Origin: Dictyostelium discoideum
Lineage: Eukaryota
Assembly (NCBI GenBank): GCA_000004695.1
Contig: CM000152.2
Location: 160,001 to 224,000 of the forward strand
DNA: 64,000 nt
Direction: 5' to 3'
In this document: positions 42,965 to 49,554 of the stretch, piece by piece
Layout of the letters: each line of letters begins with the position of its first letter
Numbering within the stretch: the stretch's first letter is position 1
The notes under the pieces: model-generated
Seen by the model: the letters and a program-made list of their open reading frames with translations, nothing else
What the model was told of the DNA's origin: nothing
The model's database searches: none
Translations under genes and position numbers: made by a program

Positions 42965-45644
42965 TGTCTAATCCTGTATCTGTATGTAAATTAATGGGAA
43001 AAAAAAATAAAATAAAATAAAATAAAATAAAATAAAATAAAATAAAAATAAAAAATAAGATAAAATTATTCATATTTATTCCTTTATTTCAAATTATAAA
43101 TTAATATTTGTATAGATTAATAATAGTGGTAGTATTAGTAATTCTAATTTAAATAATGAAAGTTTATCACCAAGTAGATTATCATCTTCACCAAATTCGA
43201 AATCAAGTATGTATTTTTTTTTTTTTTTAAATACACCCCCCTCTCCTCCTCCCCTTCCTCTTCCTCTCATCATTAAATAAAACATATTACTAATTAGTGA
43301 AAAATATAATATAGTGGAGTTAAATGGTAAAAGAACATTGAAAAGTAGTGTTGTAAAAACATTATTAAATAGATCAAGTTCAGGTAATAATTTAAATAAT
43401 ACAGTAACAACAAGAAGAGCAGCAGGATCATTTACATCAAATTATCAAAATATATATACACCAAATAATAATAGTTATAATAGTAGTAATAATAATAATA
43501 ATAATAATAATGACGACGATACAGTATCAGTAGATGGTGATAATCCACCAGATTCACCAAAATCCACTAAAGATCATAGTAATAGTGTTGGAAGTAATAG
43601 TGGTGGTGGTGGTGGTGGTAGTAGTGGAGGATTAAATATGAGTATGAATAATATAAAACAACAACAACAAGATAATTTAATAAAACAGCAACAAAAGGAT
43701 AGATCATTGTGGACTGTTAGATCATTGAAAGAGCATGCAGAAGTATTGGATATAATGGAGAGATTGAAACCAGTGAATAGAGCCATCTCATTTGGTCAAA
43801 TTTATGCAAGAGAGGAGACACAATTTGATTTCGATCCATTGATTGGTCGTGATACAATGTTACAATTAATTCTACAACATTTACAATTTGAGGGATTGAT
43901 GGACTCTAGAAAGTTATTAGAAGAGGAGGCAAGAGTGCAATATCCAGAGTATGCAATCAACGAATCTAGATTAGTGACCCTACTTCGTACGGCTTTAAAA
44001 GATTCAGAACGTGTTTTCCAATTAACTTTAGATGATAAAAAAAGAGATTCACAACAACAATTGGAAGAGCATTTAGCATTCCTTGGTCTATTCAAAGATG
44101 AGACGGCAACTGATATAATGGGTGAAGATGTAAATATTTATGATGAACCTGAAAATTCAAATATTATATATGTAGATGATAAAGAAAAAGAAAAAGAAAA
44201 GGAAAAAGAAAAAGAAAAAGAAAAAGATAAATTTGGACCAAATTCAACAAATAGTTTAAGCGGTAGTGGTTCATCACCAAATATACCTAGTGGTATGAAT
44301 AATAATAGTAGTAGTATAGGTAATAATAGTATTGGTAATAGTAATAGTTATAGTAATGGTGAGTTATCACCATTGTCAGCATCAACATTGTTAATGATGT
44401 CACCACAGAATAAGAATTCAATAGAGACGAATAAACCACAAGTTAAGGCGGCATCATTAAATAAATTGGTTATTTTATTAACACCAGATAATAATCATGA
44501 TTTAGAGTATACAAAGACATTCTTGTTAACTTACCAATCATTTACAACACCAGAGATGTTGTTGGAGAAATTGGTCCAACGTTATCATGTACCACAGAAA
44601 CCAGGTCAATCATTGGACGATTGGAAAAAGAGTGCCGTACCAATTCAATTACGTGTTGCCAATGTTATTAGAACTTGGATAAAGGATTACTTTTCAGATT
44701 TCAATGATAAACTCATTCAAAATGTAAAATCACTCTATGAGAATATGAAACAGTCTGGTAATATGTCGCATGCAAAGATTCTATCAGAGTCGTTGAATGC
44801 AAAGATCAAGGGTATGGTTGGCATGGACGATCAAAAGAGGGCCCCCACTTTCACAAGTCCTGCACCCGAACCAAAGGTACCAAAGAATATTTGGTCACAA
44901 ACTTTAGACATTTTCTCTGTCGATGAAGAAGAAATCGCTAGACAATTGACCTTGATGGACTTTGAAATCTTTTCAGCCATTAAATCAACCGAATTGTTGA
45001 ATCAAAGTTGGAATAAACCAAAACTACGTCACCGTTCACCAAATGTATTGACTTTGATCAATAGATTCAATGAGATCTCTCAATGGACTGCAACTTCGAT
45101 TCTCTCTTATCCAAAGGTTAAGGATAGAGCTAGAATCATGGCTAAGTTCATAAAGATCGCTGAATATTGTATGAGACATTTAAATAATTTCAATACTTCA
45201 ATGGCAATTCTTTCAGGTTTAAACGCTTCCTCTGTTCATAGATTAAAATTCACCAAAGAAGAGTTACCAAAACATACTCAACAAGTTTACACAGAGTTAC
45301 AATTTCATCTAAGTTCAGCTCAAGCTTACAAAGAGTATCGTGCTCTTTTGGCAAAAGCAAATCCACCTTGTTTACCTTATCTTGGTGTTTATTTAACAGA
45401 TTTAACTTTCTTTGAAGAAGGTAATCCTGATTTCATTCAAGGTTTCATCAATTTTGGTAAAAGAAAGTTAATCTATGGTTCAATTTCAAATGTTCAAAGT
45501 TTTCAAAATGCAAAATATAATTTACAACCAGTTTATCAAATTACAAAATTATTAAAAGGTTTTAAACTTTTAGAAGAAAATGATTTATATTCAAGATCAA
45601 TGTCATTTGAACCAAGAAATAAAGAAAGAAGTGAAATTTTATAA
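42964..45644 (+). CDS. Ras guanine-nucleotide exchange factor with LisH motif, RasGEF-N and RasGEF (Cdc25) domains: join(42964..42981,43116..43206,43315..45644)
   Basis: The main exon 43315..45644 carries LisH (DTMLQLILQHLQFEGLMDSRKLLEEEA), RasGEF-N (LNKLVILLTPDNNHDLEYTKTFLLTYQSFTTPEMLLEKLVQRY) and the Cdc25 catalytic domain (ARQLTLMDFEIFSAIKSTELLNQSWNK...LPYLGVYLTDLTFFEEGNP). The 5' model is MSNPVS|GTATGT (42982), then tgtatAG|INNSGSISNS...NSKS-A|GTATGT (43207), then taatatAG|TG, which creates the first Met by a split A|TG. The 5' exons are less certain than the main exon. Confidence 0.85.
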
Positions 45645-45771
45645 AAAAACAAAAATCAAAAAAAAAAAAAAAAAAAAAAAAGTGATAATACAAATCCTTT
45701 AAAAGATTTTTATTTATTATTTTTTTTATTTTTTTTAATCCACAAACTAAAGAAAAAAAAAAACAAAAAAA

Positions 45772-45806
<35 letters not shown>

Positions 45807-46242
45807 TTTATATAATTAATTTAATATATAATAAATAAGCGATTTTTTAAAAACAAATCAAAGATTTTATTTCATTTTTTTTATTTTATTTTTTATTTAT
45901 TGGTTCACAAATCAAATTTTTATTTTTTTTTATTTTTTATTTTTTTTTTTTTTGTTTTTTTTTTATTTTTTATTTTTTTGAGAGCAATTGCTGACTTAAT
46001 CGATTTTTTATGTTTTTCATTTCAATTTTTTTTTTTTTTTGTTTTTTTTTTTTTTATTATAATTTTTTAATTTTTTTTTTTTTTTTTTTTAAATTAAAAA
46101 ACTTTGCTGTTGTGAAGCAAATTTTTTTATTTATTTTTAAAATTATTACAACAGTAGAATATAAAAACCAAAAAGGAATTCAAGATTTATATTTTAATAC
46201 GCACCTATATATCTTTATTTAATTAATGGAATTTCACCTGAA

Positions 46243-47086
46243 ATGGGAGGAATATTCTCTAAAGGTTACCTACCTGAATTACCAAATGGTTCTCTTATCA
46301 AATTAGGGATTATTGGTTTAGAGAATTCTGGGAAGGTAAATTTTAATTATTATAATATTAATAATAATAATAACAGTAATAATAATAAAAAAAAAAAAAA
46401 TACTAATTATGTAAATTTTTTTTTTTTTTTTTTTTTATTTTATTTTTTTTTTTTTTCAAAATCATGTTTTAATTATTATATAAAAAATAAAAAAAACAAT
46501 AATAATAAATTATTATTATTATTATTATTATTTTATTTTATTATTTTTACTATTTTATTTTATTTTTTTTATTTATTTTATTTTATTAAAGACAACATTA
46601 TTAAATAAATTTATAGATGCATCATCAAAAAAATCTATAGCATCAGTATTAATATCAACAGGAGTTTATATAGAATCTATAATATTTAAAGGATGGGAAA
46701 TATTTGCAGGTGATTTATTATATCCAAATTATATAAGTAAAATTTATAAACCATATTTATTAGGATCAGATGTAATTATATTTATGATTGATTCATCAGA
46801 TATTCATCAAATGACCGAGGCAAAGAATCAGATTGATCTATTGATCCAAGAACAATGTATTAATAGTAGTGTATTTTTAGTAATGGCAAATAAACAAGAC
46901 CAAAAACGGTGTGTTTCAATCCATCAATTGGAGCAGTATTTAGAACTGTACAGATTAACAAACCCTTGGAAATGTTTACCATTATCCTTAATTCAAGAAA
47001 AAGGTATTGAAGATTTAATAAAATGGATTTTAGAAAATACTGTAGTAAGAAAAACTTATAATAATCAATTACAAACTTTACAATAG
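46243..47086 (+). CDS. Divergent Arf-like small GTPase: join(46243..46335,46592..47086)
   Basis: MGGIFSK (Gly2 myristoylation-type Arf N-terminus) and P-loop GLENSGK|TTLL, split by an intron AAG|GTAAAT at 46336 to ttattaaAG at 46590-46591. NKQD is at the G4 position and the Arf-type C-terminal helix is present. The switch II WDxGGQ is replaced by WEIFAGD. Confidence 0.8.
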
Positions 47087-47406
47087 TAATAATAATAAAT
47101 AATAAATAATAATAAATAATAAATAATGAATAAAATATAAAAAAATAAAAAAAATAAAAAAAAATAAACAATAAACAATAATTTAAATTTAATCAATTAT
47201 CATCATAATCATTAATAATAATAATTATAATAATTATAATAATTCATCATATCCTCCCTCCTCTCTCTCACTCTCTCTTTTATTATTTTAAAATAATAAT
47301 AATAATAAAGTTTTAATGATAATTTTGAAAAAAAAAAAAAAAAAAAAAAAAGTGTATTGTTTTTATTTTATTTTATTTTGTTTTATTTTATTTATTTAAT
47401 TTTATA

Positions 47407-49554
47407 TTAAAGTTTTAATTTTTCAATTGGGGTTAAATATCTCTTTAAAACAAAATAAATAAAAACACCATAAATTATTGCACCAGTTGCAACGAGATAA
47501 TAACCATCTCTTTCAATTCTATATTTTCCATTTTGTTCGGCACAAAGTTCTTTTGATATATTATCATGTATTATTACTTGTTGTTGTTGTTCTTGTATTA
47601 TTGTTGTTGTTGTTGTTAAATTATTTGAAGAAGTAGAAATTAAAGAAGAAGAAGATGAAGAAGATGAAGAATTATCATTTGATATATTTACAATACATTC
47701 ACTTGTTGTTAATTTATCAATTAACATTAAAATAAATAATTTTGGATAAGTTCCAGCGAAATTGGCAATTGTATTTAATAAGGTTACATAAGTACCACCA
47801 ATACTTTTATCACTAATCTTTAAAAAGAAAGAACCTTGTGATACTGACATTAAATTATAAGAGAAACTTGAAAATAATGAAATCATCAATAACAAAAAGA
47901 AATGACTCCAACTAATTTCACCACCATTTAAATTTGGGAAATAAAATACACTACACATATTAACTAAAATAAAGAATACTCCAACTAAATATGCATTACT
48001 CCACTTTTTTTTATCATAAAAATTTAATAAAAGTTAATAAAAATTAATAAAAATTAATAAATTATTATTTAATAAATAAATAAATTTACTTACAATTGTT
48101 AATGGTTTATTTTTAACCCATTTACTTGAAATTATTGAGAAAATGATAATACTTGGGAATTGAATTAATGAGAACGAGGCGATATCTTCTTTTCTTAAAC
48201 CTTTTTCTAATAGTTTTAAATTTAATGCAGATTCATTTGGTTGAAAAACTATTTTTGAAATGATGAATAATATTGATAAAATTTTAATATGTGGTAAAGT
48301 AATAATCTTCCATAAAAGATAATAAACTTGTTTTGGTGTTAAATCAGATTCACTAATATCCATACCATATGTTTCTTGTACAATTGATTTTTTACCATTA
48401 TCATAATTATTATTACTATTATTATTATCAATAATTTCATTATTCTCATTATTCTCTTTAATTATTGTTATATCTTTTTTATCAATTGAAATATGTTGTT
48501 TATTCTTTTTATTTTGTTTTTTAACTGGTGATGATAATAATGATGGTGATAAGGATGATGGTGATGATCTCATTGATTTACTTTCAATTGACTCATTTTC
48601 AATTTTACTTTTAACTTGTTTATTTTTATCATCATTATTATTATTATTATAATTATCATGACGAGTAGTAGTAGTAGTAATTGTAGTTGATTCCTCATCT
48701 TTAAAAAATGCTAAATAAATACTAAGTATTATAAATAATATACCCCAAAACTGTAAATAACCAGGTAATGTTATTATACCCTCTTCTGATGGTACACTTC
48801 TTAAAAATTTATTTGCAAATTTTGGTGAACTTAATGTTAAAAATATTGTATATGATAAAAAGTATCCTGTATTTAATCCAATAGTCTATTTTTAATTGAT
48901 ATAAATTAAAATAAATTAGTAAAAATTTTAATTTATGCCAGTAATAAAGTGATAATAATAATAATAATACATACTTGACAAGTTGAAGCATAATGTAAAT
49001 AAGGTTTTGATAAAATAGTTAATGCCCACGCATCAACAGCAATATCTTGAGTTGCCATTAAAAATATTAATAAAAAGAATACTATTGTAATATAGATTAT
49101 TTTAGTTTCAGCATGTTCTAAAAGTGTTTCAATGAAAAAACTAATTGTTATGAAAACTATTCCAGCTAAAATTTGAATTGGTACAATCCATGATTTTCTT
49201 CTACCAAATGATTGAACGAAATAACTATCAACAATTGGTGACCATAATAATTTCAATGAATATGGATATGTACTAATTGTAAAAATACCAATTTGTGTAT
49301 ATGTTGCATGTTTATGTAATAAAAATGGTATTGTACCAAATGATAATCCAATCGGTATACCTTGAATTAAATCTATATATATATATATAATTTATATATC
49401 ATGTGTAGTATAAAATTATAATAAGTTAATAAATATGTAGGTGTGTGTATGTGTGTGTGTATATATATATATATATGTACTTACATAATAAAACCAACCA
49501 AACTATATTATTTAATTCATTTCCAAAATGTCTTTTTAATAAAGTAAATAACAT
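47407..49554 (-). CDS. slc33a1: Acetyl-CoA transporter (SLC33A1/AT-1 family, MFS), about 618 aa: complement(join(47407..48003,48094..48885,48975..49372,49485..49554))
   Basis: Exon 1 (MLFTLLKRHFGNELNNIVWLVLL) ends T|GTAAGT at 49484. Exon 2 (acceptor atatatAG 49373-49374) gives YLIQGIPIGLSFGTIPFLL...LKLLWSPIVDSYFVQSFGRRKSWIVPIQ...MATQDIAVDAWALTILSKPYLHYASTCQ, which matches human SLC33A1 closely, and ends CAA|GTATGT at 48974. Exon 3 (acceptor aaaaatAG 48886-48887) ends ATT|GTAAGT at 48093. Exon 4 (acceptor aaaaaaAG 48004-48005) contains IGGTYVTLLNTIANFAGTYP... and runs to TAA at 47407. All phases are consistent, 1857 nt. Confidence 0.85.

Follow-up and report, generated by a model that had tools for sequence, protein, structure and literature searches.

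A conserved, degenerate switch II motif in ArrL, an Arf-like protein of Dictyostelium discoideum and its relatives

The 64,000-nucleotide stretch of Dictyostelium discoideum DNA analyzed here (the window) carries on its forward strand arrL, a gene of two exons (46243-46335 and 46592-47086) whose GT..AG intron falls within the P-loop of the encoded Arf-like protein, and which is organized as follows:

46243..46335, + strand, exon 1 of arrL, codons 1-31 (MGGIFSKGYLPELPNGSLIKLGIIGLENSGK), 36% GC
46336..46591, + strand, the sole intron of arrL, 256 nt, GTAAAT...TTAAAG, phase 0, 4% GC
46592..47086, + strand, exon 2 of arrL, codons 32-195 and the stop codon TAG, beginning TTLLNK

The base composition follows this organization, with 21% GC for the window, 4% for the intron, and 25-36% for the exons. 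The reading frame opens at the ATG at 46243 (MGGIFSK...GLENSGK) and closes with the TAG at 47084-47086, and splicing joins GK to TT to restore an exact P-loop. A previous reading of this DNA, made from the sequence alone, had described an Arf/Arl N-terminus (MGGIFSK), a P-loop split by an intron (GLENSGK|TT), and an NKQD motif, and all three are indeed in place, beginning from the ATG at 46243, across the 256-nt, phase 0 GT..AG intron, and at N131-D134, respectively. Exon 2 spans the last P-loop residue, switch I, the interswitch, switch II, G4, G5, and the C-terminus. As it holds G2 through G5 in their entirety, a different switch II cannot come from exon choice. The sequence-only reading had named a second exon with a canonical switch II as grounds for refuting its proposal; a search of all six frames of 45650-47400 for D..G[Q/H/E/K/G/C] returned none.

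arrL is an already annotated and catalogued gene. Its spliced product of 195 amino acids is identical to the D. discoideum AX4 protein XP_642095.1 / EAL68201.1 / UniProt Q54YV7, "ADP-ribosylation factor L" (hereafter ArrL), and also to the "DdiArlX4" entry among the sequences compiled by Vargová et al. (2021; PMC8358228). In that eukaryote-wide survey of the ARF family, DdiArlX4 is left "unannotated" and assigned to no ancestral ARF paralogue (Vargová et al., 2021; PMC8358228). A literature search on arrL, Q54YV7, and DdiArlX4 did not find a paper that studies the protein, and, as far as found, its degenerate G3 motif is undiscussed in the literature.

The orthologues of ArrL span a wide range of divergence among the dictyostelids, with identities of 96-97% for D. 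firmibasis, 76-77% for D. purpureum, 71-73% for a EukProt sequence, 69-71% for Acytostelium subglobosum, 67% for Tieghemostelium lacteum, and 65% for Polysphondylium violaceum; D. citrinum and D. dimigraforme sequences fall into one cluster with the D. discoideum protein. The position and phase of the intron, between GK and TT, are kept in all four gene structures compared (D. discoideum, D. firmibasis, D. purpureum, and T. lacteum), and the orthologous introns measure 354 nt in D. firmibasis, 95 nt in D. purpureum, and 76 nt in T. lacteum. The ratio dN/dS (Nei-Gojobori) is 0.085 between D. discoideum and D. firmibasis and 0.12-0.20 for deeper pairs, at which depth dS is saturated. arrL is thus a genuine gene, of two exons, on which purifying selection acts. 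Functional coupling with the RasGEF upstream was also considered and set aside, as the adjacency is seen in D. firmibasis and in neither D. purpureum nor T. lacteum.

The encoded protein is a divergent member of the ARF family rather than a non-member, because the match to the family is clear apart from G3, a single altered motif. The Pfam Arf profile (PF00025) matches residues 19-180 over profile positions 15-173 of 174 with 91.9 bits (E 4e-26; cut-off 22.3), and 113 Arf-family chains in the PDB match at E < 1e-3 (phmmer), the best among them being yeast Arl1 (7.6e-18), Candida Arf3p, and Arl3 (5e-17), with E of about 1e-17 to 1e-18. An AlphaFold2 model built from 17 sequences (mean pLDDT 85.9, pTM 0.84) places its elements in the order β1 α1 β2 β3 α2 β4 α3 β5 α4 β6 α5, which is the Arf topology, with β1 at residues 17-25, α1 at 31-38, an extra short helix at 41-46, β2 at 48-52 and 56-63, β3 at 66-72, and α2 at 76-88. 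The top matches of the model in a Foldseek comparison with the PDB are Arl3-GDP, Arf1-GDP, and Arf6-GDP (TM 0.74-0.78, rmsd about 2.1-2.6 Å), and GTP-bound Arf6, Arl3, and Arl1 deviate by more than 4.4 Å rmsd. At the level of the family signatures, the P-loop GL[D]xxGK[ST], with its acidic residue at the position of Ras G12, is present with a conservative D-to-E change; G4 (NKxD) equals the consensus; G5 ((C/S)A) keeps its Ser and has its Ala replaced; and the G3 signature W-D-x-G-G-Q (with F and H in Sar) is missing, its Asp alone being kept. These motifs and their neighbors map onto the forward strand as follows:

46246..46263, + strand, N-myristoylation signal G2-G-I-F-S6-K7 (MGxxxSK), followed by G8-Y-L-P-E-L-P14
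46315..46335, + strand, first part of the G1 motif or P-loop, G25-L-E-N-S-G30-K31, completed by T32 at 46592-46594
46655..46657, + strand, S53, opposite the switch-I (G2) Thr48 of Arf1 in phmmer and L-INS-i alignments, invariant
46694..46708, + strand, body of β3, W66-E-I-F-A70, opposite I61-S-F-T-V65 of Arf1; E67, I68, and A70 vary among orthologues
46709..46726, + strand, degenerate G3 and start of switch II, G71-D72-L73-L74-Y75-P76, opposite W-D-x-G-G-Q; all six residues invariant in seven orthologues
46889..46900, + strand, G4 (guanine specificity), N131-K-Q-D134, equal to the Arf consensus NKQD and invariant in orthologues
46985..46990, + strand, G5, S163-L164, opposite C/S-A of Arf/Arl in the L-INS-i alignment; S163 invariant, position 164 L, I, or F

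Across the seven dictyostelid orthologues (65-97% identity), the invariant elements comprise the myristoylation signal, GLENxGKT, S53, GDLLYP, NKQD, and S163. At the N-terminus, G2, S6, K7, and G8-P14 with the exception of E12 are invariant, and DdiArlX4 was scored "yes" for predicted N-myristoylation by Vargová et al. (2021; PMC8358228). In the P-loop, G25, L26, E27, N28, G30, K31, and T32 are all invariant. A further comparison is provided by the residues predicted to contact the nucleotide and Mg (G25, G30, K31, T32, S53, D72, N131, K132, D134, and S163), which are invariant in 10 of 10 cases versus 95 of 188 positions overall (seven orthologues; hypergeometric P about 8e-4).

The P-loop of ArrL is that of an ordinary Arf-family protein. 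GLENSGKT pairs without gaps with GLDAAGKT of Arf1, and E27 takes the place of the Asp of Arf-family proteins, at a position that corresponds to Ras G12 and is never Gly in the Arf family. Glu at this position recurs in the GLENSGKT proteins P0008-P0017, in DdiArlX3, and in PpoArl16. The Gly-to-Glu substitution in the P-loop that had been read from the sequence alone is thus ruled out by both MAFFT alignments: G25 and G30 of GxxxxGKT are present, and E27 lies where Arfs have Asp. Switch I is altered, with PTIGFN changed to ISTGVY and preceded by a four-residue insertion (D40-I47). Here the register of the G2 Thr depends on the alignment, in that MAFFT in its automatic mode pairs it instead with S49, which is likewise invariant.

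ArrL departs from the G3 signature of the ARF family at the start of switch II. Three independent alignments place GDLLYP opposite WDxGGQ, namely, phmmer pairwise alignments with Arl1, Arf3p, and Arl3 from the PDB; a MAFFT alignment of 17 sequences, consisting of ArrL and 16 database homologues; and a MAFFT L-INS-i alignment of 57 sequences, consisting of the seven orthologues and 50 references from the supplement of Vargová et al., which cover Arf1, Arf6, Arl1, 2, 3, 5, 6, 8, 13, 16, 17, Arfrp1, Sar1, SarB, and SRβ. An HMM-anchored extraction recovers the same six G3 columns as the alignments, and the AlphaFold2 model agrees with this register, its β3 ending at D72 and its α2 starting at P76. 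Asp72 is kept, the Trp of the Arf family is replaced by Gly71, the two glycines by Leu74 and Tyr75, and the catalytic Gln by Pro76, so that neither Gln nor His occupies the catalytic position. Within the examined part of the dataset of Vargová et al., DLLYP is found in ArrL only.

This register differs from that of the sequence-only reading, in which WEIFAGD took the place of WDxGGQ and homology of the segment to switch II was to be checked by alignment. That homology does not hold: the three alignments and the secondary structure of the model put WEIFA in the body of β3, and E67 is E, D, or Q among the orthologues, whereas GDLLYP is invariant in all seven. The loss of the switch-II Gln that had been read from the misplaced segment is nevertheless real, with Pro76 in its stead, and was if anything understated, as the DxxG Gly is lost as well (Tyr75).

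The phylogenetic distribution of ArrL is narrow. When a profile of the seven orthologues was compared with 1.84 billion representative proteins, the dictyostelid cluster scored 337 bits and everything else 137 bits or less; the top foreign scores belong to tandem two-domain proteins, and the best single foreign domain reaches 92.8 bits, a score that any Arf would attain. No orthologue outside Dictyostelia was found among these representatives. To place ArrL within the family, it was scored against mini-HMMs of the individual paralogues, made from two to three sequences each and with SRβ, Arl18, and SarB outside the scoring. The scores span 29-92 bits. The highest are those of Arl2 (71-92 bits), with Arl1, Arl3, and Arl5 next, and the margin of Arl2 over the next family, about 10 bits or less, falls short of the margin of at least 20 bits used for paralogue assignment in the published survey (Vargová et al., 2021; PMC8358228). 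Orthology to Arl16 or Arl13, the classic paralogues without the Gln, was considered and rejected, given that their scores are among the lowest (29-39 and 43-62 bits, respectively) and that the published survey leaves ArrL unassigned.

On these sequence comparisons, ArrL is a dictyostelid-restricted paralogue left without assignment to any of the ancestral ARF paralogues, and an Arl2/Arl3-like origin may be taken as a lead only. Arl2, Arl1, and Arl3 provide its best PDB and mini-HMM matches and have a similar P-loop and α1 (GLENSGKTTLLNKF versus GLDNAGKTTILKKF), but the identity with ArrL is only about 25-30%, and WDxGGQ is theirs. Moreover, canonical forms of both Arl1 and Arl2 occur in D. discoideum alongside ArrL.

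The absence of the switch-II Gln is in itself not very unusual in kind, and Arf-like proteins without it are well documented. ARL10, ARL13A/B, ARL15, and ARL16 lack this residue, and ARLs have been discussed as atypical or pseudoGTPases in a review that also defines the pseudoGTPase classes (PMC12722892). These animal proteins resemble ArrL in combining an Arf fold, a canonical P-loop, and NKxD with the missing Gln; however, none is an orthologue of ArrL, which is confined to dictyostelids. In the L-INS-i alignment, G3 reads DLGGG in Arl13 and RELGG in Arl16. The DxxG glycines are kept in Arl13, Arl17, and most others, whereas ArrL has D-L-L-Y-P. Within D. discoideum itself, five other paralogues lack the Gln, that is, DdiArf6 (WDLAGE), Arf10 (FDVKGG), Arf12 (WDLSGK), ArlX3 (WDIGGK), and ArlX1 (WDVGYE). 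ArlX1 shares with ArrL a Tyr at the position of the DxxG Gly; unlike ArrL, all five have the Asp preceded by Trp or Phe, retain one Gly or more, and have no DLLYP. ArrL alone among the Gln-less D. discoideum paralogues has Pro at the Gln position.

A broader comparison encompassed 224 Arf domains, which came from the reference sequences and from the 149 top-ranking hits of the profile. In this sample, which is biased to divergent proteins, 128 domains have D..G with Q/H, 57 have D..G without Q/H, and about 35 are without the DxxG Gly, six of these last being partial domains with no residue aligned at that position. Pro at the Gln position occurs elsewhere in domain 1 of P0031 (WDLCYP), P0057 (FDAFLP), P0084 (LDIGFP), and P0066 (WDVGSP). 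The first of these was examined as a distant relative of ArrL and discounted on its identity to Arl3 and Arf1 (44% to each) and on its BLAST ranking, ArlX4 being absent from its 12 best matches; its Tyr-Pro motif is therefore convergent. The occurrence of Pro or Tyr-Pro in P0031 and P0057 hints that the switch of Arf domains may have been frozen recurrently and convergently.

Parallels may also be drawn with other branches of the Ras superfamily. The RGK GTPases (Rad/Gem/Rem) and Rnd/RhoH keep G1 and G4 and bind nucleotide while lacking the canonical catalytic residues, and in RGK proteins the DxxG Gly is replaced (DxWE). ArrL would resemble them in retaining G1 and G4 without catalytic residues, by functional analogy only; RGK and Rnd/RhoH proteins belong to other branches of the superfamily and are without the Arf-type N-terminal myristoyl switch or interswitch. 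Such class II/III pseudoGTPases (RGK, Rnd/RhoH) are regulated otherwise than by a GEF/GAP cycle. The classes themselves are described in PMC12722892.

How the altered motif may bear on the function of ArrL is best considered against the chemistry that it departs from, and we regard it as the most likely reading and as somewhat probable, from the pattern of retained and lost residues, that ArrL is a class II-type pseudoGTPase, acting as a membrane-anchored adaptor that holds nucleotide constitutively and does not hydrolyze GTP. Classical small GTPases use the Gln of DxxGQ to orient the hydrolytic water, and their switch II movement is coupled to the γ-phosphate through the DxxG Gly, by virtue of its flexibility and its backbone NH; Ras and Gα mutants of this Gly allow GTP binding and block the activating transition. 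ArrL would be N-myristoylated and thereby attached to membranes. It is predicted still to bind guanine nucleotide, because the residues of G1 and G4 and the Ser of G5 are conserved across Dictyostelia, and to be unable to hydrolyze GTP by the Arf mechanism, because it has neither the water-orienting Gln nor a flexible, γ-phosphate-sensing Gly. The rigid, hydrophobic L-L-Y-P hinge, with its Pro capping α2, probably locks switch II in one conformation, and ArrL would be controlled through its expression, localization, or partners and not through a GEF/GAP cycle. By analogy with Ras A146 mutants, the bulky G5 residue that replaces Ala may speed nucleotide exchange, favoring a GTP-loaded state in cells. 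The affinity for nucleotide could be low, because a Ser, in altered surroundings, stands for the switch-I Thr and another residue for the Ala of G5. The GTPase deficiency predicted from the sequence alone is thereby retained in part: its grounds in WEIFAGD and in the P-loop fail, the absence of the Gln stands, and the core of the prediction would be stronger with the DxxG Gly and the Trp also gone.

The conserved G1 and G4 would be equally expected if ArrL cycles with the help of a partner, and the interpretation as a non-hydrolyzing adaptor has to be weighed against one in which ArrL is still a switch, its hydrolysis being non-canonical and sustained by a GAP residue in trans or by Tyr75 or a switch-I Ser/Thr acting as a substitute. 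Conservation of G1, the G3 Asp, G4, and the switch-I Ser is as expected for a full nucleotide cycle, and Tyr75 and Pro76 are invariant and not merely degenerate, which suggests a specific role. Precedents for cycling without the Gln exist in Rap, for which the Asn thumb of RapGAP supplies catalysis, and in Sar1, which uses His, as seen in the L-INS-i alignment. However, DxGG is intact in replacements of the Sar1 type, where the sole change is from Q to H, whereas in ArrL the DxxG Gly gives way to a bulky Tyr followed by Pro; we know of no candidate GAP for ArrL and consider a cycling ArrL unlikely. A permanently GTP-like state, for its part, would fit poorly with the GDP-like form of the AlphaFold2 model; this is weak evidence, and AlphaFold may favor the GDP-like state for Arf-family proteins.

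A further alternative is a nucleotide-free class I pseudoGTPase in which the Arf fold is an interaction scaffold. The nucleotide-free state was among the outcomes foreseen by the sequence-only reading, and appears less likely now that none of the ten predicted contacts varies among the seven orthologues. Decay of G1 and G4 is typical of class I pseudoGTPases, whereas GxxxxGKT and NKQD of ArrL are perfect and, along with D72 and S163, invariant across the Dictyostelia sampled. On the other side, deviations affect three of the five G motifs (G2 from PTxGF to ISTGVY, G3 from WDxGGQ to GDLLYP, and G5 from SA to SL/SI/SF), and human ARL14 and ARL15, which purify nucleotide-free (PMC12722892), count in favor of such a state; on balance it seems still less likely than a cycling ArrL. 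Finally, the degenerate motif might be a gene-model artefact or the mark of a decaying pseudogene, and a public annotation from another D. discoideum strain (P0002) does read into the intron and lose the end of the P-loop together with helix α1, an example of how automatic annotation can fail at this locus. Yet the splice yields exact GKTT, and GDLLYP, which does not vary among seven species, is encoded well within the long exon 2. Moreover, none of the six frames of 45650-47400 contains an exon with D..G[QH], and the RefSeq/UniProt protein is identical to the product. Given also the conserved intron (4/4) and dN/dS of 0.085-0.2, this explanation is exceedingly improbable and is excluded for practical purposes.

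Extending the interpretation of ArrL as a non-hydrolyzing adaptor, we tentatively suggest, with more doubt than assurance, that ArrL might be a dictyostelid invention in which the switch-II hinge, converted into a fixed hydrophobic L-L-Y-P surface, and GTP as no more than a structural cofactor would make a permanently "on," myristoyl-anchored adaptor, with the conserved, proline-rich SKGYLPELP as a docking motif and control residing in expression or partners and not in a GEF or GAP. As a Gln-less protein, ArrL adds a case to the known class of atypical Arf-like proteins and does not found a new category; it goes further than its animal counterparts, as both the Gly of DxxG and the Gln are lost. 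If confirmed biochemically, ArrL would provide a genetically tractable, non-metazoan example of an Arf-like pseudoGTPase, and could help explain how the Arf fold can signal without a GTPase cycle.

A minor observation concerns the segment that follows the myristoylation signal. G8-P14 (GYLPELP) is situated where Arfs have their amphipathic helix, contains two prolines, and belongs to a stretch (residues 1-16) that is helix-free in the AlphaFold2 model, and the conserved N-terminal SKGYLPELP of ArrL takes the place of the usual amphipathic helix.

Replacement of the Gly-Gln positions of G3, which in ArrL (GDLLYP) are occupied by Tyr75 and Pro76, is not confined to this protein. Among the matches retrieved with the profile built from seven dictyostelid orthologues, similar replacements are found in unrelated Arf-family proteins, namely, P0031 (residues 7–166; WDLCYP), P0057 (FDAFLP), P0084 (LDIGFP), and P0066 (WDVGSP). 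Proline at the position of the catalytic glutamine therefore seems to have originated repeatedly within the Arf family. Domain 1 of P0031 was itself considered as a relative of ArrL and rejected; it is Arl3/Arf1-like. Another unassigned Arf-like protein of D. discoideum, DdiArlX1 (XP_642368.1), carries the G3 sequence WDVGYE and shares with ArrL a tyrosine at the position of the DxxG glycine. Its G3 motif is directly followed by a very long poly-Asn insertion, located within switch II.

The features within and around the arrL gene discussed below are, in window coordinates:

46258–46284, + strand: ArrL residues 6–14 (S-K-G-Y-L-P-E-L-P), near-invariant in the seven dictyostelids
46226–46306, + strand: short ORF of 26 aa, overlapping arrL out of frame
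43314–45644, + strand: long ORF of a RasGEF protein directly upstream of arrL (RasGEF_N, 97.7 bits; RasGEF, 219 bits)
47407–47958, − strand: ORF downstream of and convergent with arrL, matching Pfam Acatn (99 bits) and corresponding to the C-terminal portion of an acetyl-CoA transporter

Because residues 6–14 of ArrL contain two prolines, they are unable to make the amphipathic helix typical of Arf proteins; the AlphaFold model likewise shows this segment as non-helical. This SKGYLPELP segment may instead represent a candidate docking motif. The ATG of the short ORF (46226) sits 17 nt 5′ of the arrL ATG, and this ORF could be a uORF or else a product of mere chance in AT-rich DNA.

In the protein annotated at the arrL locus of another D. 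discoideum strain (P0002; ACTFIW_003196), the public model runs past the splice donor into intronic sequence (…GLENSGKVNFNYNYNNSNSNNNNNNNASSKK…); helix α1 and the last part of the P-loop are missing from it. Judging by the conservation of this intron in four species, the read-through reflects an annotation error in this assembly, not a biological isoform.

Approximately 600 bp separate the end of the RasGEF ORF from arrL, and a RasGEF gene likewise adjoins arrL in D. firmibasis. When neighborhoods were compared, this adjacency was absent from D. purpureum and T. lacteum, and a conserved GEF–GTPase pairing is thus without evidence. On the opposite flank, the acetyl-CoA transporter ORF carries a low-complexity poly-Ser/Thr/Gln insert; in D. 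firmibasis, the transporter gene again lies next to arrL, followed by a DUF1751 gene.
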